A DNA stretch of 64,000 nt from Bispira polyomma (GCA_965649765.1 OZ287753.1:4154001-4218000), one strand, 5' to 3'; shown: positions 10,621 to 62,441, numbered from the stretch's first letter. The notes: generated by a model not told the origin, from the letters alone. Numbers and translations are program-made.

Positions 10621-13300
10621 AGTTGACATTAATTATATGCAATTAATATGTAAAAAAGGTAAAAATATACACCAAACCCCAATTAGGAAGTACGATTTGA
10701 TAAAAGAGCCTGAAAAGCTAGGGCAACTTGGTCAGATGCCTGGTGGTCCTTAGTTACATACTTCCAGATGCAGTCAGAGGTCCAAGTCCCATGACTTTGT
10801 ATGTCTTGAAAAGGAACATGGCTATTGAACGCCAGAGTTGCTTTCGAGTGACGGAAGTCATGAAATGTAATGGGAGAATTATTTAGGTTTATTTTTTTTA
10901 GAATCAATTTTGAGTCTCTCAGTGGAACCCAACGTGTTGGAATTTTATATTGAAAGAAAAAGTGGTTCATATTTGGAGCCAGGGGTTAGGTCTAGTACAT
11001 TTCTGATGGCCACTACTGGACATAGAGGAGATTTATTAATGGCAGGTACCTTAAGAGTCCTGATCGTGTCCTTATTTTGGAGGGTTTTGGACCACTTGAT
11101 CATGATATTGAGACGAAGAATCTAGAGGGGAGTAGGTGTTTACTGCATGGGGAACCAGGTTAGAAATATGTAAAAAGGAGAAGAAAGCCAGCAAATATGC
11201 TGCTTAAAAAATCTGACCGATAAACATGGTGTCACATTTTTGCACTATCTGTGTTAACATTGATATATCTATAATTTTACTTTGTTTAACTTCGTCATGT
11301 ATTTTAAATGCCGAGAGTCCATTGTTGTTAACTTTGTCACGTTCAGGGAATGCTAAATCACTCAAGGGAATAAAGCCAAACTTGCCTTTCACTTGTGTTT
11401 TCCATTTCTGAAATACCCTATTGTTCTTGGCTAAGTTTACCATGTCTGTATGCCGTGTTTTGACATGTGATTCAAGGTTGTATTTATCCACTGGTGTGGC
11501 ATTGTTCATTACCCCCACCTTTTGTGGCCCCACTTCCCTTATTTTAGTAGACTCGTTCTGTTGTTTCCTCTAATGAATTAACTTCCCTTTCAATGTTTAG
11601 GGGTTGAGTCTCTGTGTCATGTAGGGACGAAAAGGGTGTGAACCTATTGTAAACCGGTGTACTTTTGTCACTGCTGGAAATTAGATTTCTAAGCACAGAC
11701 CCGACTGTTTCTTGTGCAATTTTTTTCTTGTTATCGTTAACATCCGCACATGCCTTTGTGGTATACTTTGTTTTCGTTTTACAGGACGCGATTCACCTTG
11801 TGTTTTGATTAACCTGTACTTAGTTTCTCAGCCTTTTGGCTGCTGACTTTACATTGAATGTATGTACAACTTTAGTATTTCCATTGTTACGATTCATGGA
11901 GTCACAACTGGGGGCCCTACTAGTTTCTTTACTATTTACATAGTGACAACTGTTGTCAGGGCTCTCCCTTTTTACATTTTGTTTTACTATTTGGGCATAG
12001 CTTTTATTTTGAAATTTGGCCCAATCATGCCTCCAGTTGTGACTCGCACTACTACAGCTATTAACATTATATTCAATTCTGGTTTTTGCGCAACCTGTAC
12101 TGCCCCCACTTTTTGTACCGTTTTGAACATTTGCCCTATCCAAAAGTTGAACTGCAGTTTTGCAGTACCTCATTCGTTTTTTGATTTACACCTTTGGCAA
12201 TTTTTAGATGGTTGGGTAAGCGACTTCCCATGGGACAGACAGGTTGCACAGAGATGCGTGTACAATTTACCTCCAGTTTCATGGTCCTCCTTTTAAGGAC
12301 AAGTACCCTCTGATAGTAAGGACAAGCAACCCCTTTATTTGTAGAATTTAGCTTTTGACTACCTTGGGACTGATTGTGATTAAGAAAACCCCTATGAGCA
12401 TATGCTCTTCTGATTCCATCTATTTTATGTGTATCTTACCACGTTACCTTATCTTCCTCCATATTACAAAGAAGGATGGCCTGGCTGCCTTTGGCTGAGT
12501 TCCATGTGAAATCGTGGCTATCTTCCATTATCTCGGAAAGGTACTCCAACATTAAGTTTTTTCTTTCAACATTTTGTTCTTCCCTGATGATACAGAAACC
12601 CACTGGGCCATAGACAACCCATCATATGGCATTCAGTTTTTCAACTGACCACCTAGAATTGAATTTTGAGGCCACAGGATTTGTTTTTTTCACCCATACT
12701 GTTTCAGTCTCACCCTTTGTGATTTAAAATTACCTGACTCATTCATTGTTTGCAGTTCCTTGAGTCTTGTGTCTACTGCGCTCTGGAGTTAGTCCAACGG
12801 ACATAGCATCTGCAGGGTCGGGACCACACTGTCTTCTGCTTCACGCTGCCATCTGGGCTGTTCAATACTAATGGCTGGAACGGGGTTTTAACAACTAGCC
12901 ATCAGAGGTAGCCTACTAACTGACTGTCTTTTGGTTGCAGGTTGGGTACTACTAAGAAAACCATTAATGGACTGTCCATCAGTTGTTTGCTTTTCTTCCA
13001 CTTTAGCTAATCTTGTACCCAAGTCCTTTAATCCTGAAGGATTCTGAGGTTCACTTCGGAACTCTACACAACACTAAAACTGTCTAGAGTTTCATTTTGT
13101 TCAGCTTCAAAGTCTTTTAATTGTTTACAATGCTCGTTTTTTGTGTGTACCCCCGCAGGCAGTAAAATCATTTAGTTTTCTCGGAGCCATACTGAAACAA
13201 TTCCACAATGCCTTGATACCCATGTATATAATAAAATTTGACGGGATGTATATAAATTGTAATATGTCTAGAATAATATTAAAATGTTGAATTAAAAGAT
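10620..13300 (-). mobile_element. Degenerate, internally deleted DIRS-type element (ORF1-like region plus YR; no RT recognised)
   Basis: Broken minus-strand ORFs (11204-11533, 11820-12173 and coding-like DNA to ~13260) lie directly upstream of the YR. Boundaries approximate. Confidence 0.55.
10683..11285 (-). pseudogene. Tyrosine recombinase of a DIRS-type retrotransposon (frameshifts and stops)
   Basis: ...ITFHDFRHSKATLAFNSHVPFQDIQSHGTWTSDCIWKY shows the HxxR, HGxW and catalytic Y motifs; upstream YLLAFFSFLHISNLVP matches the first YR box. Confidence 0.85.
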
Positions 13301-19640: not shown

Positions 19641-20523
19641 AAAAAATATTTTAATGCTATTAATTAGAATAATAGACTTTCAATTATCAATAAAGGTATA
19701 AATCTGGTGATAATGAACCAAAGATGCACATTATTTACAAAAACAAACATTTCATGGAGGGGGATTTTGATTAAGTCTGCACTTTAATATCTTTCTCACA
19801 GCTGGGTCCAGAAAATACTATTTTACTTGATGTGATTAGGAGTGACGGTTTAATCTAACATCAATACATATGAAGTTCTGGTTTGCAGACAAACTTAATT
19901 AGACTGGATAGTTTAGTCACAGAGAAGCTAAAAGAAATGGAACGTTGGCATAAGGTTTGCTGCAATAGCAGAAAATAAGTGCAAGGGACAGAAAGAACAG
20001 CATAATAGCCTTTCTTAGGCTCTGATATATGTATTTATTTAAGTATTTTATTTCTACATATAATACAAACAAACTAAATAGAAAGTAGAACAGGAAGACA
20101 TCTCTAAAGACCACATATATCTGTGTAAAGCCATTTTTCGTCCGGGCATTCGTATTGAAAAATTTCTATACCTCAAACAATAAATAGCTTCCCGTTCATC
20201 ATCAAATTTTGCTTAAAATCCATGTGACTATCGTTAACACTCTTGTCTCTCAACAGCCCTCATACCTTGTTACGTGTCTTTCGGTTACTAGCTTAACCCT
20301 AACAGAGGTAAGAGATTTTCTGCTTGTTCGGTTAAACCAACAAAGAGAGTTGGATCTAGAACTTTTTCAGTTGCTACTCCTTTGTTATAGAATAGTCTTC
20401 CAGTTGACCTTAGATAACTAAAAACACTTTCTGGGTTTAGGAGAAAATTTAAATTCTCATTTATGTGCGTTTGAATCTTTTACCCTAAAGATATAGTTGA
20501 TGAAACCCTACTCCCGATGGGGG

Positions 20524-20780
20524 TTTTGAATTTGAATTTGGATATTTAACGTCCACTCTAGTACCCGTTTAGGTTATATTTGGACTGGTAGTTTGAAACA
20601 CAAGTTTGGAGAAAACATACAGTTGATCAAGGTTCTGCACTGAAAACAGCGGCCCACAGTAAGAAACTACCACCTTTCCCACATAGGCATCGACGGGATT
20701 CAAACTGACGCCGCCCTGAGGTAAGAGACCAGTGATTGTGAAGCACAATGCTTGCCAACCCCTAGGCCACTGCGGCCCCC
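20524..20780 (-). mobile_element. tRNA-derived SINE family A inserted in the Harbinger relic
   Basis: Reverse complement of the 14509 element; perfect 14-bp TSD ACTCCCGATGGGGG at 20510-20523 and 20781-20794. Confidence 0.92.
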
Positions 20781-20794
20781 ACTCCCGATGGGGG

Positions 20795-21160
20795 ATGGAC
20801 ATGATCAAAAGGTTATACAATTACAGGATCTTCAGAGGCCGAAGGATGGTCAAAAATGCATTTGGGGTTTTAGTCTAAAGATTCCGGGTGCTTTGGTCAA
20901 CAATGCAGCAGGAACCACCAGGTAGTGGCCAGCATAGCTTTAGCATGTGTGGTCCTGCACAATGTGATCAGGACAGCAGCTATCAACATGGGTAATCCAG
21001 GTAATCCAGATGATGTCCCACCGACAGAGGTATGTGTAGGACAAAACAACCCAACCAACTGAAAATATCCCAACAGGGCAGCAAAAGAACAGAGAGAGCT
21101 ACTCCTGCAATATTTCACCAATGAGGGAGCAGTGTATTTGCAAAATGGCCGAGTTTGAGT
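20795..21160 (+). pseudogene. PIF/Harbinger transposase C-terminal fragment
   Basis: [27 protein letters not shown] and VVASIALACVVLHNVIR...AKEQRELLLQYF match the Harbinger NY-R-S-R-R-x-V-E-N-A-F-G and C-x-x-L-H-N motifs. Confidence 0.85.
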
Positions 21161-21569
21161 CCACACCTGAGTCTGAGCCTGAGCCAAGAACAAACCTAAA
21201 AGGCCCGTTTCACACTTACTGGGTTCCACATAAAGGGGCCTGACTCAATAGAATGGGAAGGGGTGTGCAATTATCACATTTCTACTTTGGGGTAGTTCCT
21301 AGTATTGCATTTGGTTTTTAAATTATTTGCTTGAGGGTGTATTTTCCTTCTGGGGTGTATGTTAAGCAAATTTTTACTTTTTGGGGAATTTTAAAGTTAA
21401 AATTGTCAAGTTAACAATTTATTTCTTATGTATGTGTGTGTGTGGGGCGGGGGGGGGGGGGGGGGGGCAAGTACTTCTAGGGGCAGTATGCTTTTTGTCA
21501 TTAGGTGTTTCCAAGGGTTTTTTCAACGACAGCTCAAACATTGGTTTTTGATGTTTTAGGTGGCCCTGT

Positions 21570-22845
21570 AAAGGGCCTTTTAGTGTCCGTACTGGGACTG
21601 ATGAAGGAGGAGGAGAGGTTAGCGTCTACACATCAGGGATTGTAGTGCTGCTGCTGCTGCTGGTACTGGCTCGTGGGTGAGTTCTTGGGACAACTGTGGT
21701 TGGAGTGTTCAGAGTGGAATCCGTTTGCTGTGCATCTAGAGTAAGAGGTAAAACTTGATCAGGAGTGTTTATGTTCTGGTAGCTGTGATTGTCACTGACT
21801 CAAAACCTCTGAGGAGAGATGAGGCTGTCGACGCAATCAGTATGTCCGATACTCACTGATATTCACTGATGCTGGGTTTGTGTATTGGTGGCTGGTGCTG
21901 GCTGCAGCACTTTCCAGATGTAAATGGTGCAGTGTGTGGCACCTGGACTGTTAACTGTGGCCTGACAGGTGAGGGCTGAATAGGTCGAGGCACTCTTAGC
22001 TGGGGTTGCTGGGCTGCAGGTACAAGTACCGTGGTTGTGGAGGTGGGTGAAGGCCTCTGGTATTGCAACTGTGGTTGTGCCTGATACAGCTAATTCTCCT
22101 AGAAACTATGGCTGTGGTGTGGTCACCCGGTCCTAGATAGTGCTCCCAAGGTCAAATGCCTTCCTTCTGAAGTGGTTGAATTGTTCATCTGGCAATTTCT
22201 TGCCCTTCAATGTGAACCAGTTCAGAAATGCGCCCCTGTGTCCCTCAACCTTGGGCTTCATGGTGTCTTTGAAGAAGCCTTAGATGGTGTTCTGCATCAT
22301 TGCCAGCATGTCCCTCATCTCAGCAGACAGTGCCGCCTCAGAGTTCGGGGTTGATCTGGCACAGCCTGAAGACTAATGCTTAGTTTGCCATAGATAATCC
22401 TCTGTGATTGAAACCACTTCTTCACTTTTTCCATGTCAAATCCCTTGCCCGAGCATAACTGCAGCCACAACATTTCTTTAGCCTGGGTGTCTTTGTATTT
22501 TTCATCTTTCTTGTTTTTAGCCATTCATGTTCACACAGAAAGGTCACCAGTGCCCCCTCCTCTGCGTCACTAAAGATGACCGTTTACATCTTCTCCTTCT
22601 GTTGTTTCCTCAATATGGAAGACACCTCTCCATCTCCAGCTGTGTCAGCCTTATCCTCCAGATAAGGGTCCTGGGTTCCCTCTTGCTCAATCACCAGGGT
22701 CTGTGAACGCTGAGAAAACTGTGTCTCAGGGATGACAAGGGGCATTCCCACATGAAATTGTTGGTTATCCTTATCCTGTGCCCCCACATGCTCCTCCATC
22801 CTACTCTTCCTTGTCTTTCTTTTTGGTTTTGGTCCCCTAATGCCT
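21570..22845 (-). pseudogene. Harbinger accessory MADF/Myb-like DNA-binding protein (disrupted)
   Basis: KNKKDEKYKDTQAKEMLWLQLCSGKGFDMEKVKKWFQSQRIIYGKL is MADF-like and is followed by a Pro/Gln-rich tail; it converges on the transposase as expected for two-ORF Harbingers. Putative right terminus ...GATTGGGGCT at ~23498. Confidence 0.75.
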
Positions 22846-23919
22846 AAAATTTTCTTAGTGTAATATTTTATTTTCCAGAAAACAACAAAATCCTATTCTC
22901 AATAATAATCTCAATAATAATATCTGTCTATTAAATTGTTGATAGTTGTAAAGTTTCCAAGATGCTGTAGCTGAATAAATGTAGATTACTCTAACGCCCC
23001 CCCCCCCTTCCTCCCCCCAATCTGCTGGCGCCAACTAATTATTGTTTGTTTGGCCAGACTTATCTATTCTATTGGGACTTTCCAGACAACTTATCCTTTG
23101 TTTCCCTGGAGTTATCTTTTTAATTGGGTGCAAAAAAAGGATCTATCTTTGACAAAAGACACGATATCTCGGGGGAAGAAGGGGGGTGAAACGATTACTC
23201 ATAATGGCCCAACCTAAATCTGATGGAAAGATCAATCAGGATGAATTTTCAAACCATTTGGGGGAAGATTGAAAAAATAGATAAAAAAGAAAAGATTTAA
23301 AAGGCAACGATAAGTCAATAGTGGGTTATTATTCACCCCGATTGACTGGCCGTGCTTCCCATATTCGCCTCTGCTTGCAGAGATTATCAAACATGTTTGA
23401 AAACCTCTGCAACCTCCCCAATTGGAAACGATAAGTTGTTGGAATGCCCAAACCACTCTGATAATTGCCCTGATCTTATAATCGTAATGATTGGGGCTAT
23501 GATTGACATAGTAGAACAGGGATACAACATGAAATCTTAAAAAGTACATGCACCATTTAGAAAACAAATTTAGTTAAACCTTTCCACCCCTGTGTTAATG
23601 GCTATGATAAATAGCATGTGTCACTCGTAGAGGTTATATAAGGAACTTTCCTTTACTTTCTCTTGCAGTTGAGGACATCTTTTACATGATTACAAGGCAA
23701 ACCAGGAGTGCAGCAGCACTTTGAACAAGCTGAAGTTTGTGAATCCCAGTTTGTGGTAGTCTAAAGTATAGTGCATTTAAAGTCTAGTTTGGATATTACA
23801 AGTGCTTGTATTAAAGTCTGTGGCCCATTCCAGCTATCTGTAACATATTAAAATGTCCTTCAGTTTACAGAGATTCCAGCTATCTGTAACATATTAAAAC
23901 GTCCTTTAGTTGACAGTCT

Positions 23920-23925
23920 TTTATT
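23920..23925 (-). terminator. Candidate polyadenylation signal (AATAAA) of the opsin
   Basis: First minus-strand AATAAA I found, ~550 nt downstream of the stop codon. Confidence 0.3.
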
Positions 23926-24478
23926 GGGCCCAAAGGTTTAAGTATTAGATAAGCACTAACTGAAATTTTATACACAGGTACACAACAACAGTATTTCCCC
24001 ATCAAACTTTGAAAGTTCACACTTTGAGATCATAAAAAAAAGAACACAAACACGTACTGACCAAACATTTGCTCCATCAATTTACAGTCTATATGGGATG
24101 TGTAGTGGTAACACAATGACCACTACAAACTAGGCTCTATGTAGAAATAAGAGTCAGCAAAATAGTATTACAGAGATAACAACTACAAAATATGCATTAG
24201 TACAACAGAAAAGGCAAGAAATAAGCAAGACTATTCAATAACTATCAGCAAATCCTTTTCAAGTTTTCAAGACTTTTTGCATGCAGAGAGACAAATTTGG
24301 TTCGTTATTAACACACAAATTATTATGTTGCTGTGACTTGCCATCATTTTTTTGGCAATATGTTTATATTTGTAAAAACGAAGGCTAAAAAATGGTTTGC
24401 ACAAAACAACTAATCGCAATTAATTTTAATGGTGTATCTACTATTTTGAGCAACCCTATATTAAGTTTAACACAGTAA

Positions 24479-25350
24479 TCAGACAATAATAATTTTTGAA
24501 GCAACATTTTTCCCTCTGGTTAGACCTGTAGTTTGACTTTTGGTTGACCTTTTGTCTGTGCCTTCCTGGCCTGTGGTCAGTGGAATTCCCTGACCGTGAT
24601 GTTGAATGTAGAGATTGTGCCTATTAGATTCTGCCCAGTATGGCAGAGATTGCCGACACTTACAGGAAGATGCACGCAGCAGCTTCCAGGCACATCTGCG
24701 GAAATGTCTACTGGTGGCACAGTACACAATGGGGTTATAGATAGCAGATGCCTTTGCAAATATACCAGGCACCAGGCTGATGTAAGGGTTGAGATATATC
24801 TGGTACTCAGTCATGCCTAGAATAGCCACGATGCTGTATGGTAACCAAGAGATCAAAAACAGCAACACAATGATAAGGCTGATCTTTGCTAGTTTAATAT
24901 CCTGTCTAACGGACAGGTTGTTGGCCTGCAAGGAGGTGACCCCCAGATGCGTTTGCTCTACTATGATGTGTCGCTCGTGTCTATGTATCACCACAAAGAT
25001 GTAGACATAGGAGAGAGTGGTGAGGCAGAAAGGCAGGCCAAATCCCCCGGAGAATAGACTTAGCACAAAGAAGGTGTTACTAGGCCCAGAAGACATGTAA
25101 TCGAAGGTACAGGAAGTGCCCAGTCCGTCCATGACGTAACGCCCCACTCCCAACACAGGCAAAAGGCACCACACGATGGAATTACACCACACAATGACTA
25201 TCATGCCGAGTGTACGGTGCTGGCGACTAGTCACATTAGGTGCGGAGAAAGGGTTAATCAAACCAATCAGACGGTCTATAGCTATAGCGCACATGGAACC
25301 AATTGATGAGAAACCAGATACCCCAGCCAGGATGCTGTACAGGTAACAGA
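24479..25350 (-). CDS. Opsin exon 3 (TM3 to C-terminus), Gq/rhabdomeric-like, probably non-canonical r-opsin
   Basis: Acceptor TTTTTCAG at 25351; (V)CYLYSILAGVSGFSSIGSMCAIAIDRL...GRYVMDGLGTSCTFDY...SWLPY...FAKASAIYNPIVY (Schiff-base Lys and NPxxY); 872 nt including stop. Confidence 0.95.
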
Positions 25351-25690
25351 CTGAAAAAGAAAAACGAGATCAAGAAAGATGTTGACACATGAATAGATAT
25401 ATATAGGGGCACAACAAAATTTACATTTACATTTGCATTTGGAGTATTTTTACTACATATCTTGAATTAAGATACAAAATGACTGAGATTAAGCAATGCA
25501 GCTCGGTGTGCCATAGTCTGTTTGGGAACATATCGATATGGTACAGTTGGCAGCACAGGGTCAGCTAAGGGTATAATGTTAACTCATGCTGTTTGGTTGT
25601 ACTTGGGCAGTTAAGAACACGTGAATTAGCACCTTGAATATCAGATAAAGTTTTTATTTGAATTACAATGCAGTTGTATATGTGACTTAC

Positions 25691-25824
25691 CAAATGTCTG
25701 GGACATATATACGTGACATAAGCTGTAGTAGGCGAGAAAGGGTAAGCTCACAGAACAGGCCAGGAGGTCAGAGAGGGCAAGGCTCACCAAAAGGTAATTA
25801 CCTTTACCCCGCCAGTGTTTGGAT
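25691..25824 (-). CDS. Opsin exon 2 (ICL1-TM2-ECL1), 134 nt
   Basis: TTTTTTAG acceptor and G|GTAAGT donor; (R)SKHWRGKGNYLLVSLALSDLLACSVSLPF; phases 2/1 join exons 1 and 3 in frame. Confidence 0.93.
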
Positions 25825-26084
25825 CTAAAAAATATCAAAACAATAAAACCTGTATCAAACCTGCCAGTCCTGCCAGGTTTATTATAACATGTGTGACTTT
25901 TTGTAGGATTCTACAGTACCCAAATTTTGCATATACTATTGCAGTTGCAAATGTTGTGATTGCAAGTCTACTTGACAATAGGGGAGTCGGTCAAAGTGTG
26001 CTGCTTTGCAAACACTGGAAAGTCAGTTTTCCTATATACACACAAAGATCCAGTTTTTAACCCACAATTGCCGGAGTGGAAGGT

Positions 26085-26255
26085 TAGTATGATACATTGA
26101 CATTATCAAATGCCCAGTCACATCAATAGGGTTAACGTGTCTGGGTGTCACCTCCTTGTGGGTCAACAACCCGTCCATGAGACAGGATATTAAATTGGCA
26201 AAGATCTGCCTCATTGTATTGCGGTTTTTTATCTCTTTGCTACCATACATCATCT
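26085..26255 (+). pseudogene. Inverted degenerate copy of part of opsin exon 3, inside opsin intron 1
   Basis: Plus-strand CTGGGTGTCACCTCCTTGTGGGTCAACAACCCGTCCATGAGACAGGATATTAAATTGGCAAAGATC...CTACCATACATCATC aligns with the reverse complement of ~24830-24995. Confidence 0.9.
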
Positions 26256-26879
26256 TTGTTTAACCTGTTTTTTCTAAAGAGGGCTGGATCTAGGAATAGT
26301 CTCCCATTTGAGCTTAGATGATTAGAAAACCTTTCTGGGTTTAGGAGAAAACTTGCATTAAACATGGAAAAAATAATAAAATTCGAATATTTGGACACTA
26401 GGAAGGGCTATATAAACTAGCAACCTTCTGAAGTAGCAGCTGCAGGTTTGTCCCTGATAAATGCCTGTCCCCAATAAATGCCTGTTATGTGTCTACAATT
26501 TTTAGTAACTTTACCAGTTTCAATGATGAAGTTTGAAGTAAAAAGTTACCATCATCACAAAGTTCCCAGGGTCTAGTGACACTTAGATAAGTGTGTTTAT
26601 TTTAATGCAGTCCCACCCATTCCCTTATGTCAAAAGTGAGATGCATCAGACTTAACTTTCTGACATTTGGTTGAGTAGATTTAATAATGCAGTCACAACC
26701 CATTCCCTTGTGGCAGAGTGTCATTTGTCAGACTAAACCTTGTTTCTGGATAAAATACTTGTGTCTGAAAAAATTCCCAGCCTTGCTTTTAATGATGTCA
26801 GTGTTCAGCAAAGACCATTGTTTGATAACAAAATTTAATTTTGCACTATCTGTACTTTAGTCCCCTGAATGTTTGCCAT

Positions 26880-27150
26880 GTTATGTACTAGTTAAAATGC
26901 CTAGTGGGCGTGAAAATGCTTTCTTAAGTATCCCTACCTTTGTACGATCAGTTCACAGGTAAAAAAAACATTTTAACAATAGTTTCTCATGATGCTTCTA
27001 AGCAGTGGAATGGTCTGCCTGATGATATTTGTACTGCCTCCTCACTTGCTGGTTTTACGAAAAAGCTCAAAACCTTAGCAATGCTTTTTTTCCATAGCCT
27101 TGTTACCTTTAACAGAGATAAGCACTATAAAAGTTAAATAAGATTAATGT
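26880..27150 (+). mobile_element. CR1/L2-type LINE 3' fragment
   Basis: TTTAACAATAGTTTCTCATGATGC...TGGAATG..CTGCCT...AAAAGCTCAAAACC and AGCACTATAAAAGTT tail, shared with 30850-31180, 39600-39935 and 50815-51130. Confidence 0.8.
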
Positions 27151-27870
27151 TATATGCTTCCTTTACATCAGCATCGCAGCAACGGCCACATACTTATCTG
27201 ATTGGTTAAATGACTTATAGGCACAAGGTTTTCCTTTATAATGTTAAGTAGACCCCTTCTCATGTAACAGAATTCAATTTAAAAAACAGCCACATCTAAG
27301 AAGTGTGATGAATATGTCAAGTGAGAATTGTCATAACCCACTCCAAACCAGGAATATACAAGGAATCTTAGATGTAGTTGCATCAATTAATATTGGAGTT
27401 GTAGAATACACTCAGACTTACGAAGTTATGTGTATCATATATCTAGAACTTTGAAATATACGTAAAACACAGTGTACTCAGGTACATCTCCCAACATATT
27501 CTATAGCATATATCATGACAAATGAGTGCACTGACAAATAAAGAGAGGAACCAATATTATTTCTATTGACTTTTATGGGATAAATTGGAAATATAAGCGA
27601 AAATGATTGCAAAATTACCTTTTTCTTGCTTCTTAGAAGTTTTTACTATTGTTTTTATTGATTTATTGGTGAATATATGATGTAACTGTTATCGTTTGAT
27701 TTCGGAAGTTTTACGAATGAAGTTAACCAACAATAAACTAACTGAAGCTTCAATTTGCACAACACTTTGCAAACTAAGCCTTAACCAAGACCTTACAAAT
27801 CCATTAGCATATCAAGGGCTTTGATTTACAGGCCCCTGGTCCATAATGGCTAGCCAACCTGTGTACTCAC

Positions 27871-28157
27871 CTTACAAATACGATAATCACCACAATGTTT
27901 CCGATTGATCCAATTAGTCCCAGCACAGTTATCACAAGACCGACCATGATGTAGTGGCTGCTGGGAATCGTAGAGTAATCCCAATCTCTGAACAGAAACT
28001 CAACCCCTGCCCCAGGGACGCCCGTTGACTGGCCAGATGGATGCAGGGGCCTCAGGGGCCCGCCCCTACAAGTGACGTTTTCCTGGGCATATCCCAGACT
28101 GCACAACCCAACTGTGTTATTAGCATGTACAAATGACGACATCACAGCCGCCGTCAT
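27871..28157 (-). CDS. Opsin exon 1 (N-terminus and TM1), 287 nt
   Basis: MTAAVMSS...NNT...NVT...HYIMVGLVITVLGLIGSIGNIVVIIVFV; AG|GTGAGT donor at 27870; conserved GN motif; two N-glycosylation sequons. The true start could be Met6. Confidence 0.9.
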
Positions 28158-29773
28158 GGAAATTCATGCGACCACCTATATAGATATATTCCTGATGATA
28201 TGTTATGATTGCTTCTCATTTAGTACATTCTAATATCAGTAAAACAAATGAACATCCATGATTGGTAAACTTTGCCTGTATACCTGCATGGAGGCCGAGT
28301 TTTGTGTCCTCGCTGATGCTTTGATTTACTAATGGTATGCATGGCGAGGGACAGAGCATTTATAATAAGCAAAAGTCAACAAATTTGATATTGCACCTAT
28401 AACACAAAAAATGCATCATCTTTCTAGTCTGTGGTTATATATTGATTAATACAATAGCCGTACACAATATTATAACTTATGACCAATCTAAAAGCACTTG
28501 ATTAAATATCACTATTTGAAAATACTTATTGTATTTCCCCTTGAAGAAAACAGAATAAACTTCTATGTTAGACTTATTGAGTTTTGCTTATGGTACCGTC
28601 TCTGTCACATAATAGCCACATAAGTAAAACACAACTGTTTCGGCGTCAAAGAACAGAACTCGGTCTAACCTGCAGGATGCTAGAATATACATGTAGTCAA
28701 GCAGCTCTTGTACACTGTGTTTTGTGCTGTTGAATAAATAGAGTTCAGTGCAGTATACATTCGTGTAGGTCAAAAATATATAACTAAACTGCATTCAAAG
28801 AAAGGAAACACAAAAAAATTCTCAAGAGTAGTGATTAGTTATCACATTTATAGTAGAAGAACATATATCATGTCTGTCACATATTCTATTATTAATTCCT
28901 TTAAACACTTTGAAATAACAACATATATAATCTTTACCATCCAGCTAATATGAAGGCTTTATTACAAACAGAATACATTTCAACTGCATAAAGTATATTA
29001 TATTTGTCAAATATCACAAGATGAAATGCATCTGTTAATTACTTACTGTATGCTGGCTAAACCTTTTGTGAGTATGACAAATGGAACATGGAATTTCCCT
29101 TATTTATTTTTTCCTTTGACAGATCAACGCAATCGTCATTTAGGGTGTTATTTACCACACTGAATGGCAACTGTTTCTGTCCTCCATTCCATTCTAAAAA
29201 AGTTACTGACGAAAAGAAAACGAAACAGCTGTGTACTTCCGCATTAAGTTACACCTCCGACACCTTATTCTGTTATCTTTTTGAAGGTAAATTTCTATGA
29301 CGTTCACTCCATATTTGTATAGTTTATTATAATTAGAAAACTTTATTGAACTGCTATATTTAGCTGCTGCTGACCTATAACTTTGACCAGTATTTGCTTT
29401 ACATAGACATCAAATCATCTAATTGTTGTCGTTTTTTAAATTTTAATTCCGTAACACTTCATTAACCCAATATTTATCGTTTACCTCTCTACTTTTTTGT
29501 TGTTGTTTTTGAGCTCAGACAACTTGTTTCCTCGTTACTCATAAAATACACACACACTTCTATATCCAGTTGCCAATCCCCCTGGATCTCATCAGCACTA
29601 ATTATAACCCACAAATATAACCAACAACACACATATCCTCCCAGATATATATATACACAGATACGGGTATATTTATAGGAAATCTGCAATCTTGTTTCAT
29701 AAGATCCAAGTACTGACATATCTCCATAAGAGAGAATATGCTAAAAGACTGTTAGTGACAGAATACCAGGATA

Positions 29774-30171
29774 CTATGGAGCCCCTAAAGTGACATAGCA
29801 AGGAAATGAGATTTAAAAAGAAAATATTGTTACCGCAAGAGAGCAAGTTGTTACCTCAAGATAATAATAATTTATTTCTTTTAATTAATAAATTGTTACC
29901 TCAAGATAGAAAATCATTACCTCGAGATAGTATGTCGTTACGAGATCCTATCTTGAAGTAACAAGATGCTATTATGAGGTAACGAGATGCTCATAACAAG
30001 ATGCTATCTTGTGGTAAATACTTACTATCTTGAGATAACAACTTACTTTTTTGAGGTAAAGGCTTAATTTATTGAGGTAACAACTTATTTTCTTGAGGAA
30101 TGACTCATTATCTTGAGAAAATATTTTTTTTAAATGTCACCCATTGCTGTGTCACTTTAGGGGTTCCGTAG
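29774..30171. mobile_element. MITE with ~28-bp TIRs and an internal inverted array of ~21-bp repeats
   Basis: CTATGGAGCCCCTAAAGTGACATAGCAA ... TTGCTGTGTCACTTTAGGGGTTCCGTAG; TTACCTCAAGATA units in the left half and TATCTTGAGGTAA-like units in the right half. No clear TSD. Confidence 0.85.
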
Positions 30172-30424
30172 GGTAAGGCAATTAACTTTTAATACTCAAC
30201 AATGCACATGTATATTCATGTGAGAGTAGAGACCATTTTAGGAGGGTTCTGAAATGTTTATTTACCAACCAATTAGGCTAATAATATTAAGCATCTACAA
30301 GAATAGAGATTACTTTCTCATTAGGTCTTTATATTATGTATAGATCTTGAGGGGTCATAGATGTTGTTATTAAAGGAAACAATATTAATATGTGGTGATG
30401 TATATAATGTTGGTAAGCTAATGA

Positions 30425-31185
30425 GAAAGTCCAAGTTTACTCACAATACTCATGTTTTGAATTTGGATATTTAACGTCCACTCTAGTACCTTTTAGTAGG
30501 TTATATTGGGACGGGTAGTTGGAAACGCTGGAGGAAATACTGCATACAGTCGGTCAAGGTTCTGCAGAGAAACCAGCGGCCCACAGTAAGGAACTACCAC
30601 CTTTCCCACATAGGCATTGACGGGATTCGAACTCACGCCGCCCAGAGGTGAGAGACCAGTGATTGTGAAACGCAATGCTTGCTAACCACTAGGCCACCGC
30701 GGCCCCAATACTCCTGTTTTAAAAACCCTCCACTGGCTATTGGGTATAGAGCAATATTCACAACTGCTACCTTAGTTTACAAATATCTCAATTCAGGTTT
30801 CCCTCGGCATTTCAGTGCTAATTTGTCTCCCCATATATGTCAATACAAGGGGTAGTAGGCCGAAAAATGTTCCTACCTTTGAACAATCAGTTCACAAGTA
30901 AAAAAGACATTTTAACAATAGTTTCTCGCATGATTCTCCTGAGTTGTGGAATGATCTGCCTCATGATATCCGCACAGCCTCCTTACTTGCATGCTTTAGC
31001 ATAAAGGTCAAAACCTACCTATTCAGAAATGTTTTTCACCATAGCCTCTTTACCCTTTTCTGGTGTTTCAATGGTTACGCCCTGTACATACAATGGCTAT
31101 ATGAATTTGTCAAAACGATTTTCTGTCTCATGCACCTTAGAATCTGCAAGAACAGAGATGAGAGCTATAAACATTAGTTTAGAAT
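30425..31185 (+). mobile_element. CR1/L2-type LINE 3' fragment interrupted by a SINE
   Basis: SKFTHNTPVLKTLHWL is restored when the SINE is removed; LWNDLPHDIRTASLLACF..KVKTYLF follows. Confidence 0.8.
30459..30706 (-). mobile_element. tRNA-derived SINE family A
   Basis: Full-length reverse copy; 14-bp TSD AATACTC(A/C)TGTTTT at 30445-30458 and 30707-30720. Confidence 0.92.
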
Positions 31186-32539
31186 AACGTATTGTGATAA
31201 TTAAACTGGCCACGGAACAGCTGGATTCTTAACTATGGTATAGGTGAAATACATGTTCTTTGTAAAAGTCCTGCTTACAGAAAACTAAGAGTTACTCTAT
31301 ATAATGCTGGTATTATTGCTTAATGTTTAACTATCCGTAATACTGAAAAGTTTTGAAACTATTGTAAAACACTTATTGACAAGGTTTTAGCAAACTACCT
31401 TGATGAATCTTGGGAACATACGTCAAAAGAATTATTCTTAGAAAACCCAGGATTTTTTAGTATTCACTGAAATCTTGTTCTACATATTTGGAGAAGAGAG
31501 TATTGTGGTTGCATGGTTATCATAAAACATGTGTGCCTACATTTCTATTCACAATTCTAATCTAATAAAATTCTTATTCTTAGAATTAAAGAACATTTTC
31601 TACACTTTAGAATAATTCTTTTTCTAAGTATAAAAATGCTAGTGAATACCGCCCCTACAGTCTTTATAAGAGGTGGTAGCAGCCAAGTGCCCAGATTTCA
31701 AACCCAGTGTTGACCAACTAATGACCAACCTAGCATAACCTAATGAAGAAATGACCATAAGAATGTGACCTTTGAGTATCACCTTAAATGATAGGTAGCT
31801 AAAGATATATCAATGAGAAGATAATTTTTTTTTATATAAATATATTTTTTTTTTGAGCTGTCGCACATCACCTATATAACATGTAAGTGTGTTAAATAAA
31901 CATCGGTCTGTAGTATACATTAAATTAGCCTCAAACTTTAATATAGTTAAATCTGCAATACAATATAAAATGATCTCACTGTTTACCATTTTCTACACTG
32001 CCTGAAGGAGAGATGGAAGAATGTGTCATAATATTATAGTGCAGTAAACCTGTTTAATTATTGGTATAATCTGACAATGAATAATCTGACAATATCTCCT
32101 TAAAATAGAGCCTGGTGGCTATAACTAGACAGAGAGAGGGGGGGGGGGGGGGGCTTTTTGCATTTTTGTATTTACTATTATATATGTATCAATAAGGACG
32201 TGACTTTAGAATGAATCAGTGGGATATCCTTAAGGTAGTATGTTTGTTAAAACAATAGGAATAGTCTCTGTATCTCTTCCGTAGCCCATTGATTTTTACA
32301 AATATACCATTTTAAATTCTGGACAATTTGAGAAAACAATTCATCCAGTCCAATTATATATGGTAGAATCTACTACAGATAAATTTTAGAATTTCCCTGT
32401 CTGCAGGAATGAAAAGTAGATCCGATAAATATGTATAATATATACCAGTAGGCGCGTTGACAAGTCGTCAGGTCATTTAAATATTTGAAAGATTTTTCTC
32501 TTATGTATTTTAAATTTTTAACAAAATACATTTTTTTGC

Positions 32540-32559: not shown

Positions 32560-32593
<34 letters not shown>

Positions 32594-32960
32594 AACTATA
32601 TTAATCAAATATCTATAAATTTATAGGTTATTACTTTTTTATTTATTTTTTACATGACAACCTATGTATGAAGATAATATAAAGAGGAACTATATTAATC
32701 AAATATCTATAAATGTGTTGGTCATTATTTTTTTGTTAGTTTACATGACAACCTATTAATGAGGATAATATTTAGAGGAACTATATTTTATCAAATATCT
32801 ATGATTCTTTGTAAGCAATTTTTTTTTTTTTCTTTTTACATGTCGCTCTGTCAACTTGACAACCTATATACACTATATCTTCATAACATCTCAACCTGTC
32901 TACCTATATGTGAAAATAATATATAGAGGAACTATATTTTGTCATATATCTATAATACAT
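32540..32960. repeat. ~100-115-bp tandem repeat, ~4 copies
   Basis: CATGACAACCTAT...GATAATAT...AGGAACTATATT..TCAAATATCTAT recurs; the first copy contains an expanded (TA)n. Confidence 0.8.
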
Positions 32961-32979
32961 AAATTTCTACACTATTGTG

Positions 32980-33365
32980 TTGTTCTAGTACAATTTCTCC
33001 AAGTGATGGTAAGTTTTGTTCTGGTACATTTTGTATAAGGGATGGTATGTTTTGTCCAAGTAGATTTTGTTCTAGTGGTATGTTTTCTTCTAGTACATTT
33101 TATCCAAGTGGTATAGTATTTTTTGTTCGAGTGCATTTTGTCCAAGGGATGGTATGTTTTGTTCTAATACATTTTGTCCTAGTGGTATGTTTTGTTTGAG
33201 TACATTTTGTCCTAGTGATATGTTTTGTTCTAATACATTTTGTCCTCGTGGTATGTTTTGTTTGAGTACATTTTGTCCTAGTGGTATGTTTTGTTTGAGT
33301 ACATTTTGTCCTAGTGGTATGTTTTGTTGGACTACATTTTGTCTAAGGGGTATGTTTTGTTCCTT
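32980..33365. repeat. 30-bp minisatellite (two 15-bp halves)
   Basis: AGTACATTTTGTCCTAGTGGTATGTTTTGTTTG repeated ~12 times, degenerating to the left. Confidence 0.9.
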
Positions 33366-36300
33366 TAATAATACATATTGCTTAGATAGGAAAGCACTTG
33401 GACTACATAAGTAGAATATTTTGAAAGAAAATTAAACATATTTTTATCAATGGCCGCACAAGGAAAAATTCGATTAAATGGTCATCATTTTATAAAATGT
33501 TATTGTGTTTGTATGACAAGATTGACTTGGCAGCAATTACATAAAATAAAACAAATAAACTTATATGCCGCCTTTTTTTAAATTTTAATAGTCTATCTTA
33601 AAGTATTTATACTGGTAAGTAACATATACAGCTGTCTTTGACCTTGGGAAGATCTGTCAACAATGTGTATACAAATAAAAGTACTGTCGAGTAAGAGAAG
33701 ATAAAATAGATATTTGTTGTTTCTGTTGAAATATGTCTTAATATAATAAACTACTCTACTTACATATTCATTGCTTTATCAAATAGAGTTTTTAATTACC
33801 TACGATTAGAAAGGTGGACACGTGATCCCAAATGACAGAACATAAAAACATATATATTTGTCTCTAAAACCCCTACTAAAACGAGGCTTTAAAACAGCCC
33901 ATTTTAACACATGTAAACATCACGTTAATTATATATAGAGAAGAATATAGAAGAAATTTTAAAGGCGTTAAACAGATATTAATAGCAAAATGCATGGGAC
34001 TCATCCCTATCACACCAGTATCTGTTAGGTGCCAGTCTAATTCCTGAGTGATTGATATTCACCGACACCATAGTGATTATGTCTACATAGTATTAATTTT
34101 GTAGCTGCAATTAAGTTTCCGTTAGAGGCTGGTGGTGTACGTTGATGTGTAAGCTTGTGATGTTAGCCACGTCTTCAAATATGGTCTATATGCTTTCCTT
34201 ACGCATTTCATTACATCTTGTTACCCATGTCTTAAATAGGTTGCATTTGCTTCATTCACGTATTTCACATTTCTGGTGATTATTTGTATGTATACTATGT
34301 CTTAGTACAATATTTTACGTTCGTATACGCATAGACGTAGATGTGTAATACATTTCCACCAAACGCAGTTACCGTTTTAGTTAAGATTGCCCAAAACGTC
34401 TTTAAATGTAGCATATTTCGTGCTGCTCAAAATGATTGATTTTTCTCATGTTTTACTAACGCAAGCATAAGGTTATATATGACATCATAGGTTTATCATA
34501 CAAATACTTACGTTTCACCTCCTGTTTGCTAATCTAAGTGTTATCGAAACGGTAGCCTAGAGCTTAGTGTTAGTTTGCTTAACTGTTTGATATTCTCATG
34601 GCGATTTACAATTGCTACAGTAACTATATATTATTATTATTATTATACCAACCTACAAGTACTTATTTGCATTAATATATCATTACTTTATAATATTTCC
34701 GTAATTTTCCCGTTGTATAGAACATAGTAAAATGCTGTGTCAGATTTGTCCAGTTTTTCTTACATTTTAACTGCTCTGTCCCTCGCTGTGCGTTTGGTCC
34801 AAACTTAACATCGGGATTTACATTTAATTTACATTATGCCATCACACAACAAAAAAGTTTAATTTTAAACAATTTATTTCCTCACATATTTGTTGTGCAC
34901 CAAATCTTGTTTAAATGTTGTATCAGTAAAGTAGACTTACCCCCTTAATCATATGTACATGTATAGGTACACATCTATAAGAATTGATAGTATTTCTACA
35001 ATGTGCTTATTGATTTTTATGGTATTAAAAATATGAAATAAAATATACTTTTGTGTATGTACTTTCTGTCTCATCAAATTTTTTGCTTAAAAAGTTGTGG
35101 CCAAAACAATAGCCCCACCTCCGTGGCAAAATCAATGCCACTGTGTGTAAAATCGAGGGTGTTCAAGTAGACAACCATCCAAAGTATAGATGCAGCACCG
35201 TAATTCCTAGCATGCTGGAACAGGTGAAGGAAAAACACAAAAATGCCAGATGTCCCTCACAGTCACATTGTCTCATATGGACAACAAGACACATTACAGG
35301 TGCTACCCTTATAGTAATTGGCTTTTGTTAAGATTCCAGTGTAATTACATGTGCTGGATAGATTCTTAATGGCATTATAATAAGGAATAATAATTCTTTA
35401 TCTACCTCCAGCAACACCTCACAGGCGGGGATCATGACAGTCGTTTTTGACATTGAAGCCACAGTTAATGAGGTCAGTGGTTGGGGTTGACTCTGAAAAG
35501 GAATATGTATGCAGTAATGGAACTCTAAGGTGTCACAAATACTGTTATTGTCCTTATTGGAAAGCTAGCAGATAGAATACAACTCATATTTTGTTGATAT
35601 GACTATGCTTTGCTGCTCAAAGGAAAGAAATGCTGCAGAACCTCAACCAATATTTTCATTTGAGTAACATAAGTAAAAATGATTCAGCCAGATCTTTATT
35701 GTATGGACTAGGGTCTTTTGACAAAGATTTGCTGTTGTGCAGTAATATATATACATATAACTGAAACTCACAGATTTACTGGCAATTTTTTAATGTAAAA
35801 TTTTGTCTTGGTTATATGTATACTATTACAATTCACATATTTGCAATTGTCTTTCTAGCAAAATAGTTATATTTGTATGTAACTATTATATTTACAGCGT
35901 TTATACACAAATTTATTAATTGTCAACAAATAAATCATGTTTAAATTAATAAAATTGTTTTGATGTATGAACTGTTTTGATCCAATACTGACCAATATAT
36001 ACAAACGTATTGGTAAAAGTGGCATTGGAAATAATGTAGAATGTGAACAAAAGGGTTCACTCCCACAAAATGTTCTATACTACCGCTAATAGCACACTCA
36101 CACCTACACGTGATGGCGTCCCCCAACGTAGCAAAGCAATATAATTAAAAACAGGGTGGTTACATCTCAAAGTGACGTCATATTCACGAAGGTGCAGTCG
36201 ATTGTGACGTTTTGTGACGTTTTTGTGATGATTTTAGTACTTGTACACACGAAACGGGGGTCAAAAATCGACCAGTTTATTGAAAGTTATCACTACCTTC

Positions 36301-44400: not shown

Positions 44401-45997
44401 TTACTGGATTGGATTTATTCTACTATTTTGTAAGATTAAAATTATTTTATTTGTATCTGCTTATGGTCAGTACATATAGCTGTGACAGTATCCAGACTGA
44501 TGTACAAATGTATTTGTACCCTAAAATGTATCTGTTAAACATACATTCACTCAGATATCATAACTGAATTCACATAGATTATCTTCATCAAAAAATTTAA
44601 AAAATTGATCTGAGTTTGAAGAATACAGCTTTTTATCAAATGTTTTTATGTTCTTCTACCTAAAAGTTTTTTGATAGTTGTATTTTGAAAGCTGGTGTAT
44701 CTGCTAAAAAAATTTAGGACCAGCAATAAAATTGTAATAAATAAGTACAAAAGCCTTATCTTATTATGTATTCCAACATAAATGACAGTGGTTAACAGTA
44801 ATTTGATGATTTTGGTTTACCCATTCTGAGAGATTTTGTCAGTAGATTTAGAGTTTTTTCACACAATAATTAGATCTATGATGGATGTCAGATATATATC
44901 TTTATTGTTTGCAAATATTGAATGATGCAGCGGTGAGCCAAAAGTATTTTATATTTGAAAGTATTTTTTTGCTCTCAAAAGAAACAAAAAAAAGTTTGTC
45001 TCACAACTAGCTTGATAGGTGTTATTCATCAAATTAAGATAATATCTTACAGATAATAATTAATATGGGTAATTTACAGAGCTTTTTTGTGTTTCCTTTT
45101 ATTGTGAAATGTGTCATTATTATTAGCTTACTATATTGGGGTTAGCTTCTTTTATGAAAGGAGACATTTTAGTTCCTACATAACAGTAATGCTTGTAAAC
45201 AAACAATTGTTAGGACAATAGCCAAGACAAGAACAGTATTCAATTTTGTTATAACTTGAATGAGGTCGACATTATGAAATTTCGATAGCCCAAGTCTTAA
45301 TTTAGATGTACAAGCAATAATTTAAAAAATTGTTATATCATTCGAATTCTTCATACCTTTTTATTAAATGAATAATACTTTTTATTTGAAGCACAAATTT
45401 CAGATGCTACTTTACCCTGAATTTGGGTCTTGCGACAGCATTTTCACCAAATTCTCTTAAAAGTATTGGGCTGGTTTACTTCACAATTACGAGTTTGAAT
45501 ATTTCCCCTGAAACACAAATTACCAGATTTCCTGCCATACATTCTCACAATTTTTAAGGTCCGGATGTAGTGCCATAGTTTGTGCCATAGTTTTTTGTTT
45601 ACAAAGTTCAGAACTGACTTTAAAGCCAAGTCTATTCAATCGGCCACTCAGGAAACTTCCCCCATAATGGGTTCAGTTTTTAGTTCTCCCTAGATGTCGA
45701 CACACTGCGATAGTAAGGTGACTGATGTAGTACTTGGTTATTGATACAAGAGGAGTCTATTAATTGTTTTTTAATTTGCTCTATTTTTGCACATATTGAA
45801 AAGTACAACATATTTTATGATTTAAGGTTAATTTAATTTATCTTACTGTCTAGCTTGGTTTGGTATAATTAACAGACTTCTCTTATTTCAATGTCAAAGT
45901 GCTACTGAAGTAATCAGAGGTATTGGCCATTACAGTGTTATGGTAAATGTGTTGTAAATACTTGTGAATAATATAACATTGACATCATTGCGTATTT

Positions 45998-47006
45998 AAA
46001 CTACTTCTGACTTTGAACATATCATTAGAAGGTCATTCATTTCATTGTTTCAGAAGATCAGGGGCATCCCTGGTCTTCAATAACAACATCAAATTGCAAC
46101 ACGTACAGAAACACGGATTCTGGAAGTCTGACGCCGTTTGGGAATATCTGGAAGCTACTTCTCATGCTTCTTCCATAAATCCTACCACTTTTGCCTCTAT
46201 TATCCCTCTTTCTAACCCCCCCCCCCCCCCCCCCTCCTTTTGGCTTTGGCATTTTAGAAATTTTATCTTAAAATTTCTCTGTACAGATGTTTTTTGAGTC
46301 AAATAAGCAAATACACTTATCCCAAACATAGTCAGACTTCTACCTATCCCACATCATTAATACCAGACTTTATGGTCCACAAATATATAACCTTAAATCA
46401 AGGTCAAAAATCACTCCCATATATTTTAAGCGACTGTATAAGTCACTGCCAGGCAAGCATGGCCATCCAGGCACGAAAATATATGGCTTTACAATATTGA
46501 TTGCCAACGGAATGTTTATTTCCCTAGGAACCAATCAGATAAGTTAAGCCACTAATTGATCTAGACAGTTTCCCACCTTTTTTCAGCTGGAGTTAATAAT
46601 TTGGTGGAAACCAAAAGAGTGAAGAAGCTTTGTAGCCCACCCTCCCCCCAAAAAATTCTAACTCTGATGATACAATATTATCCACAATCTAGTCAACTTT
46701 TTATATTTTAAATATACACTTAACTCCTTGGTTCCTATGTATTACTTGTATGCTTTTATGCAACAAATACTATACATGCTTTTAAATTAAGTATGTTTAC
46801 GTCATTTATTGTATGACTTATGGTTTAGTTTAACCTTTTCTTGTATTATGTATTGCTTTGCTTAGCAGGTTTTTCAGCTTTTTTTTGTAGATGTTATGGC
46901 ATTTTGAAATTTTATCTTTTAGTCAAAATAAGTAAATAAACTTATCTCAAACATATAAAACCTTAAATCAAGGTAAAAATCACTCCCATATATTTTAAGC
47001 GACTGA
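45998..47006 (+). mobile_element. 3' end of a DIRS-type (split-direct-repeat, Ngaro/PAT-like) retrotransposon with YR C-terminus
   Basis: GHSFHCFRRSGASLVFNNNIKLQHVQKHGFWKSDAVWEYL; repeat ~46247-46437 recurs at ~46897-47005. Confidence 0.8.
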
Positions 47007-61087: not shown

Positions 61088-61729
61088 GTAAGCTACAATA
61101 GCCGATATGTATGCATATGTAGTTATTGTAAAGACTGATCTGATATTTTACATAATTTTGTCTAATTTTAATTTGTTACATTAATAGACAGTTCATCCTC
61201 AAATTTGAATGAACATTATGGTGGATTACTACAACAAATTATTTAAGTCAGCTGTATCTGAATTTCTAAGAAGAATGCAAAATATATCATTTAATAGCAC
61301 AATGTTTTTAAATTGCATTTCAATAATCATAGTGTGTGACTTGGTTTTGAATTGTAATTTAAGCATGCAGAGATTATATTGCAAACTGCACTGTGTGCCA
61401 GAGAAGAAACAATGGCATTGTATGTACAGAGTGTGAGGCCGAGAAATACCTAAAAAATGAAGAGCTCTGTGAAGGTTTGAGTTCATAATGTTCTTTTTTA
61501 TTTAAACACTCTATAACTGTTATTAGAGATATAAAAACAAAGCAAAAACTAAGTTAAGTAAAGACACTATCCATGCATGTGGAATGTTTCTGTAAGTACA
61601 ACACAGAGCGAAATCAAAAATAAGTTCAAGCAATAATTCTAGAGTGATGCAAATCTTAAAAAAAAAAAACAGATAAAATATTTTTACTTTGACTTGCCAA
61701 AGCATTATAAGCCAGTTTTCCATATATAA

Positions 61730-61732
<3 letters not shown>

Positions 61733-61800
<68 letters not shown>
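61733..61800. repeat. (TA)~34 microsatellite abutting a splice acceptor
   Basis: Directly visible; followed by CAG at 61801-61803. Confidence 0.97.
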
Positions 61801-61803
<3 letters not shown>

Positions 61804-61929
61804 CTTGTGACCATCAAGTCAGTAATTGCCATTACTGTGAATGGAATAAAGATGATGGCACAGATGCCAAGTTTGTCTGTAACCGGTGCAATAATGGATA
61901 TGCCCTTGACTTTAACAACAAATGTGCAA
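61804..61929 (+). CDS. CxxC-repeat protein, repeat exon D (126 nt; paralog of exon A)
   Basis: CAG|...A|GTAAGT, phase 1-1; CDHQVSNCHYCEWNKDDGTDAKFVCNRCNNGYALDFNNKCA. Confidence 0.9.
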
Positions 61930-62241
61930 GTAAGTTTGCTTGTAATTTGTACACATGTATTAACTAAATTTTATGAAAACCCAGATTTGAAAAATCGTTG
62001 AAAATATAGCTGTTAACATGTATGATGCTTATATGCTAATACCATATGTTGTACCTTAACAAAACTGGGATGCGGTAAACACAATTGAGCTAAAATCTCT
62101 TTTTCCAAATATTTTTACCAATGTGTATCGAATGAAACTCCAAACTGTATCATTCACTGTCTATTAAGGTCAAATTCAAGGTCGTCTTACCTACTACCTC
62201 CAATAAACTGCACTGCCCAACCACAAGTTTAGCAAATTGTC

Positions 62242-62441
62242 NNNNNNNNNNNNNNNNNNNNNNNNNNNNNNNNNNNNNNNNNNNNNNNNNNNNNNNNNNN
62301 NNNNNNNNNNNNNNNNNNNNNNNNNNNNNNNNNNNNNNNNNNNNNNNNNNNNNNNNNNNNNNNNNNNNNNNNNNNNNNNNNNNNNNNNNNNNNNNNNNNN
62401 NNNNNNNNNNNNNNNNNNNNNNNNNNNNNNNNNNNNNNNNN
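62242..62441. other. Assembly gap (200 N)
   Basis: Run of N; lies in an intron of the repeat gene and may hide exons. Confidence 1.

Follow-up and report, generated by a model that had tools for sequence, protein, structure and literature searches.

The 64,000-nucleotide stretch of Bispira polyomma DNA analysed here (GCA_965649765.1 OZ287753.1:4154001-4218000; the window) carries an opsin gene on its minus strand, in which three exons join into an open frame of 430 amino acids (aa). The original prediction had described this gene as an intact but non-canonical opsin. On balance, we consider it probable that the gene encodes an intact opsin of a divergent, unnamed clade of rhabdomeric opsins (r-opsins) outside the canonical visual r-opsins, and that the protein would bind retinal and form a bistable, blue-to-green pigment with Asp181 (bovine numbering) as its counterion and Gq as its predicted partner.

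Gene structure, residues and maintenance

The exons, introns and principal residues are listed in the table. Around the predicted junctions, 25 splice combinations leave the frame open. The 430-aa combination opens its introns with the donors GTGAGT and GTAAGT and ends them in acceptors rich in pyrimidines, and it places 28 residues between D83 and C110, as is usual outside the canonical lophotrochozoan clade. The other 24 were rejected, as they have poorer splice sites or a length of transmembrane helix 2 (TM2) and extracellular loop 1 (ECL1) unlike that of homologues. We judge the 430-aa model to be correct, with both junctions predicted from the DNA. When compared with the PDB, exon 1 has TM1 of squid rhodopsin as its top match, although weakly (E 0.57), and the 60 matches listed for exon 2 alone include no opsin. 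Many homologous open reading frames (ORFs) from gene callers, including P0122 and P0123, open with intron-like letters right before C110. The position of intron 2 is therefore probably common to these homologues. Three exons are found in both canonical and non-canonical r-opsins and, thus, the exon count is not diagnostic. A tblastn search of the window found no second copy of the gene, an Rfam scan of positions 20000-32000 gave no match, and the ESM Atlas returned only generic clusters of opsins and G-protein-coupled receptors.

Features of the opsin gene, with positions counted from the first letter of the window (ICL, intracellular loop)
Feature	Position	Strand	Content or basis
Exon 1	27871..28157	-	Start codon, N-terminus, TM1 (residues 1-96)
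Intron 1	25825..27870	-	2046 bp, GT-AG, phase 2; contains repeats and an inverted part-copy of exon 3
Inverted decayed copy of exon-3 bases 24990-24830	26090..26254	+	End of TM5, ICL3, TM6; in intron 1
Exon 2	25691..25824	-	ICL1, TM2 (D83 at 25769-25767, Pro at D+9), ECL1 YMSQ (25709-25698)
Intron 2	25351..25690	-	340 bp, GT-AG, phase 1; interrupts the codon preceding C110
Exon 3	24479..25350	-	TM3-TM7, helix 8, C-tail, stop; Pfam 7tm_1 E 3.6e-29
DRL (E/DRY motif position)	25268..25276	-	Alignment
Asp215 (position 181), predicted counterion	25127..25129	-	Alignment
Ser220 (position 186)	25114-25112	-	Alignment
Lys340 (K296), retinal attachment site	24752..24754	-	Alignment
NPIVY (NPxxY)	24736-24722	-	Alignment
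SRH tripeptide (310-312), start of predicted helix 8	24704..24712	-	Alignment and model

Exon 3 matches squid rhodopsin (E 3.4e-40), jumping spider Rh1 (2.3e-28) and bovine rhodopsin (1.1e-20). Bovine numbering was transferred by way of the alignment to squid rhodopsin, together with counting from D83, C110 and K296. The corresponding squid residues are E180, Y111, C108/C186 and HPK at 319-321, with E180 being the counterion that matches bovine position 181 (PMC5114761 Table 2; PMC6513861). In the alignment, D215 lies opposite E180, SRH opposite HPK, and DRL opposite DRY. All of the features given in the original prediction are present: the 430-aa frame, K296, the C110/C187 pair, Y113, NPxxY, Asp181, SRH and DRL, and an ECL1 without WxFG. 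Ser186 and W265 are also kept, and positions 90, 94, 118 and 292 are, by counting, Ser, Leu, Gly and Gly. As a class A receptor with seven transmembrane helices and a lysine at position 296, the protein is an animal opsin. An AlphaFold model of exon 3 only, built on a 23-row alignment, has a confidence (pLDDT) of 81, and squid rhodopsin is its top fold match. The TM5-ICL3-TM6 region is extended as in squid rhodopsin, as seen from the ungapped alignment, a C187-W265 distance of 88 and the long helices of the model.

The inverted copy in intron 1 provides a comparison for the constraint on the gene. It derives from 161 coding bases; the alignment covers 156 bases, of which 27 are mismatched, and has 3 gaps. 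The mismatches are distributed 10/9/8 over the codon positions, as for a neutrally decaying duplicate, and the codon of the conserved W265, kept in the gene, is lost from the copy. The copy lies within a 1122-bp contig that is free of differences in each of the 3 runs. When the gene was simulated as drifting neutrally half as far as the copy has diverged, only 32 of 2000 sequences kept clear of stop codons, under uniform substitution and with insertions and deletions not counted. The coding differences among those listed number at least 7, all in the run of the second sample; 5 are silent and 2 conservative, and they may be allelic or paralogous. The GC content at third codon positions is 0.54, compared with 0.35 in the introns. 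Together, these observations support a gene maintained by selection, with its function predicted.

The predicted pre-mRNA duplex between the inverted copy and exon 3 has an energy of -184 kcal/mol, compared with -55 +/- 5 for 100 shuffles, and loops out exon 2. As modelled, such an intron-exon duplex could serve as an RNA-editing substrate or influence splicing. No sign of selection for pairing was seen in the copy, with mismatches even over the codon positions and G:U pairing kept in 5 of 27. Separately, alongside a perfectly matching contig, a 414-bp contig (runs X1 and X3) covers 24250-24641 with 49 letters changed and 8 gaps; it is a second version of the 3' end of the gene, an allele or a paralogue. 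The Asp181 codon is spanned by none of the 24 contig pieces among those listed and, thus, has no confirmation from the second sample.

Relatives and placement among r-opsins

A search for homologues among 1.84 billion representatives returned P0122 as the closest match (48% identity, E 1.1e-67), followed by P0123 (40%). These two, P0131, P0136, P0188 and the near-identical pair P0142/P0265, all unnamed, form with the window gene a clade of seven with support of 99/94 in an IQ-TREE (LG+C20) tree of 58 rows, and they are also grouped in a FastTree tree of 275 rows. The 58 rows were selected by us from 284, and the alignment was trimmed at its termini and stripped of residues 262-287, position 181 and the tripeptide. 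The relatives are partial ORFs covering exon 3 at most, which limits comparison of ECL1 and exons 1-2 to the window gene. Apart from the near-identical pair, the members are 33-58% identical. When both members of the pair are counted, six of the eight rows have Asp181 and two, the pair, Gly181, and none has His310; the tripeptides at 310-312 are SRH, VKH, MKR, YAS, YKT, YRR and YKR. The odd residues of the window gene are therefore common to a small group of relatives, a point absent from the original prediction. Among named proteins, rows from Owenia and Lingula come closest in the best tree, with weak support (83/94). The literature within our coverage, which left out most subscription journals, figure logos and bioRxiv supplements, holds no description of an r-opsin clade with Asp181 and without HPK; the clade may already sit, unnamed, in published trees.

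The P0142/P0265 pair has FRM in place of DRY, NSVIY in place of NPxxY and a long ICL3, while K296 is kept.

The rarity of these residues was assessed by aligning the spliced protein with 282 homologues (near-duplicates kept, one galanin receptor excluded). Position 181 is Glu in 245, Asp in 25, Asn in 4, Gly in 2, Thr in 1 and Gln in 1, with a gap in 4. Seven of the Asp181 rows are named, from Pomacea (2), Owenia (2), Elysia, Batillaria and Bulinus. One of them, XP_025099879, is the reference non-canonical opsin Pcan-opnGq-nc1 of McElroy 2023 (PMC10733189, Table S4), with a length of 342 aa in that table and 387 aa here. Thus, Asp181 is not a unique feature. It was found in 0/123 canonical lophotrochozoan rows (119 Glu, 1 Thr and 3 gaps), 9/25 molluscan non-canonical rows and 6/8 rows of the clade, so that it is common among non-canonical r-opsins. 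DRL or ERL is present in 6 of the 282 homologues, and the third residue of DRY also varies in scallop canonical opsins (DRC, DRF; PMC10733189, PMC5114761), which weakens the argument drawn from DRL. HP(K/R) is found in 182/282 homologues and His310 in 228/282. The window gene has SRH there, and HP(K/R) is also missing from all 10 arthropsin-like and all 8 deuterostome non-canonical rows; the motif is not strictly defining for r-opsins. Asp181 and DRL are uncommon yet precedented; a missing His310 and a missing ECL1 motif are rarer.

Asn181 occurs in four homologues: P0147, P0198, P0210 and P0167 (Lottia XP_009062294), the last a published non-canonical reference. P0167 may be the Lottia protein found to be UV-sensitive (XM_009064046; PMC12274734); if so, a missing counterion would explain the ultraviolet (UV) absorbance.

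Among rows with both anchors, ECL1 has its Trp in 142/165 and its Gly in 145/165, and the YMSQ of the window gene contains the sole Tyr and the sole Gln at these positions. This loss of both residues, unique in the alignment set, sits uneasily with a functional pigment and, along with the divergent exon 2, the long branches and the Gly181, FRM and NSxxY of clade member P0265, would be expected of a gene under relaxed selection, whose product folds poorly or has a light-independent role as a chemo-, thermo- or mechanosensory helper. We find this very improbable, as the gene retains K296, both cysteines of the disulfide, an acidic residue at position 181, Ser186, W265 and NPxxY, and its frame has stayed open while its intronic copy decayed.

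The placement of the clade outside the canonical r-opsins draws on trees, topology tests and TM2. The canonical lophotrochozoan r-opsins form a clade at 100/99 in the 58-row tree, excluding the window gene. Approximately unbiased (AU) tests rejected placement inside this clade, with either the molluscan or the annelid/nemertean/flatworm branch (p-AU 0.0115 each). Of 76 canonical rows in which both anchors are present, 73 have a D83-C110 span of 29 residues, compared with 28 in the window gene, 20/20 melanopsins and 10/12 molluscan non-canonical rows. This criterion was derived in the present analysis and not taken from a paper, and the clade labels were likewise assigned here, anchored by three McElroy references (P0167, P0264 and P0282). 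The trees and AU tests, together with the missing TM2 insertion, led us to set aside the reading as a fast-evolving canonical duplicate. Additional r-opsin lineages are to be expected, given the four r-opsins placed in the lophotrochozoan ancestor by De Vivo 2023 (PMC10097855).

The one-residue insertion in TM2 splits canonical lophotrochozoan r-opsins from nearly all other r-opsins in the set, and offers a handy diagnostic.

Some of the evidence pulls away from this placement. By raw similarity, canonical opsins come next after the clade members (36-41% identity), and a position as sister to the canonical lophotrochozoan clade was not rejected (p=0.136), both as would be expected if the clade were a fast-evolving offshoot or sister of the canonical visual r-opsins, displaced by long branches. 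We regard this as improbable. Besides the rejected nested placements, the missing insertion and the absence of Asp181 from canonical rows, exon 2 alone is closest, among the fetched opsins, to the non-canonical Asp181 opsins of Elysia and Bulinus, and high similarity to canonical opsins would be expected in any case, since these evolve slowly and score well against any r-opsin. Union with the molluscan non-canonical and unnamed rows was not rejected either (p=0.183), and the two are separate in the best tree. Of the non-canonical assignment in the original prediction, the r-opsin-like character and the position outside the canonical lophotrochozoan clade are supported in broad terms, whereas a grouping with molluscan non-canonical opsins does not appear in the best tree; support for monophyly of non-canonical r-opsins is itself weak (Ramirez 2016, 10.1101/052902).

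A third topology, union with four outgroup rows, also escaped rejection (p=0.088), and the tree rows include no labelled xenopsin, c-opsin or tetraopsin. In the best trees, the clade falls among r-opsins. The makeup of the set, the outgroup result and the missing HPK leave room for a deep lineage of its own among opsins and outside r-opsins, close to xenopsins, c-opsins, bathyopsins or chaopsins, to which we give the least weight of all the alternatives: bovine rhodopsin scores 8 to 20 orders of magnitude worse than the squid and spider rhodopsins, HPK or HPR is present in 170 of 261 rows that were collected for their similarity, and the TM5-TM6 length is of the r-opsin type.

Pigment, counterion and G-protein coupling

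In the pigment that we favor, 11-cis retinal would bind K296, and Asp181 would stabilize the protonated Schiff base indirectly, through Ser186 and water, as Glu181 works at a distance in spider Rh1 (PMC6513861). With Ser, Leu and Tyr at positions 90, 94 and 113, Asp181 would be the only acid placed to act as counterion. In spider Rh1, E181D caused an 8-nm blue shift and no large fall in pKa, while E181Q lowered the pKa from 11.0 to 6.1 (PMC6513861). The E181D result argues against the altered Schiff-base pKa that the original prediction had proposed and, by analogy, the effect of Asp181 is predicted to be mild.

Those relatives outside the canonical clade that have been tested are bistable in most cases and raise Ca2+, with absorbance at 457 nm for Platynereis r-opsin4, 486 nm for an aphid 'arthropsin' and about 360 nm for those of Lottia and an onychophoran (PMC12274734). 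Because these relatives are mostly bistable and range into the UV, a blue-green, probably bistable pigment is likely and a UV pigment possible. Among Daphnia arthropsins, Thr118 gives a red shift and Ala or Gly118 is found in the others (PMC12274734), and Gly118 would speak against a red shift here. Reported results on other opsins count against parts of this pigment: the absorbance of related opsins runs from UV through to red, bistability is absent from Daphnia arthropsin2 and 6 (PMC12274734), and the 4-nm shift of Drosophila Rh1 E194Q indicates that position 181 is not always the dark-state counterion (PMC4571949). The portions of PMC10982516, PMC5648526, PMC5756024 and PMC10788561 available to us contain nothing that alters the reading.

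The tripeptide bears on the choice of G protein. According to McElroy (PMC10733189), HPK is a hallmark of opsins that couple to Gq and is retained in most non-canonical r-opsins, as it is in 18/25 molluscan non-canonical rows here; SRH therefore marks the present clade and not the non-canonical class, contrary to its use in the original prediction. His310, kept in 228/282 homologues, is lost from all eight clade rows, with Tyr in its place in four, and this loss, which suggests that coupling may differ, is common to proteins merely 33-58% identical. The three clade rows that cover DRY have DRL, ERL and ERL, and one more has FRM. Such a pattern might result if the clade had kept its pigment and acquired a changed partner (Gi/o or Gs) or weak coupling, with the replaced helix-8 tripeptide involved. 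This is a serious alternative that we nevertheless consider unlikely, as the variable tripeptide resembles relaxed constraint rather than a new motif and the long r-type TM5-TM6 is kept. Additionally, tripeptide swaps in Tcop13 of the box jellyfish Tripedalia altered the size and timing of the response and left Gs coupling unchanged (PMC5155618). Since the tripeptide varies freely within the clade and the Tcop13 swaps left coupling intact, retention of Gq is predicted ahead of a switch, and the long r-opsin TM5-TM6 would engage Gq despite the loss of HPK. The fuller proposal of an old, undescribed r-opsin subfamily, with an Asp181 counterion and His-Pro lost, that moved from Gq to another G protein and a cyclic-nucleotide pathway is more doubtful still.

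Non-canonical r-opsins are poorly characterized (PMC10733189 Table 1). A clade that has the body of an r-opsin and has dropped HPK would show if the motif sets Gq coupling or merely accompanies it, and natural Asp181, Asn181 and Gly181 variants provide ready material for studies of the counterion. Should the pigment behave as its tested relatives do, the gene would add just one more divergent opsin and one branch to the tree; a switch of G protein, if true, would place a rhabdomeric-type pigment on a cyclic-nucleotide pathway and provide a natural test of the role of HPK. Among its features, only the loss of His-Pro throughout the clade merits a bench test; Asp181 is precedented.

Elsewhere in the window, fragments resembling tyrosine-recombinase retrotransposons lie at 10683-12435 (minus strand; its Phage_integrase match, with E 2.3e-4, is weak and misses the Pfam cut-off) and at 45983-46297 (plus strand; no Pfam match). 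Tandem-repeat stretches, with an AT dinucleotide run, occupy 1-520, 32568-33431 and 61523-62001, and an assembly gap (a run of N) lies near 62242-62441.

Comparison with known opsins

The r-opsins called non-canonical (Ramirez 2016; McElroy 2023), such as Pcan-opnGq-nc1 (Asp181) and Lgig-opnGq-nc2 (XP_009062294, Asn181), lie outside the canonical clade, like the window gene. They share with it the TM2 span of 28, a residue other than Pro at position 180, frequent Asp181, K296, Y113 and NPxxY, and three exons are common among them. In contrast to the molluscan members, which mostly keep HP(K/R), the window gene has lost HPK as well as the Trp and Gly of ECL1; it is about 25-33% identical to them and stands apart in the best tree.

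Platynereis r-opsin4 (KC810972) and the Lottia 'arthropsin' (Yamashita 2025) are, within our coverage of the literature, the only lophotrochozoan r-opsins beyond the canonical clade to have been tested, being bistable, binding 11-cis retinal and causing a rise in Ca2+. Platynereis r-opsin4, which was undetected in larvae (PMC3687135) and was not identified among the fetched homologues, has HPR where the window gene has SRH. The nearest named rows, the r-opsin-like proteins of Owenia fusiformis (CAH1794772, with Asp181, and CAH1795029) and Lingula anatina (XP_013409489 and XP_013407359), are uncharacterized and about 30-34% identical to the window gene.

Squid rhodopsin (PDB 2Z73) and jumping spider Rh1 (6I9K), both canonical Gq r-opsins, are the top solved matches by sequence and fold. 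They have in common with the window gene Y113, an acid at position 181, the long TM5-TM6, helix 8 and the cysteines of the C-tail. Compared to them, the window gene has Asp instead of Glu at 181, SRH instead of HPK and DRL instead of DRY; it has lost WxFG, and it is without the squid-type TM2 insertion with Asn90.

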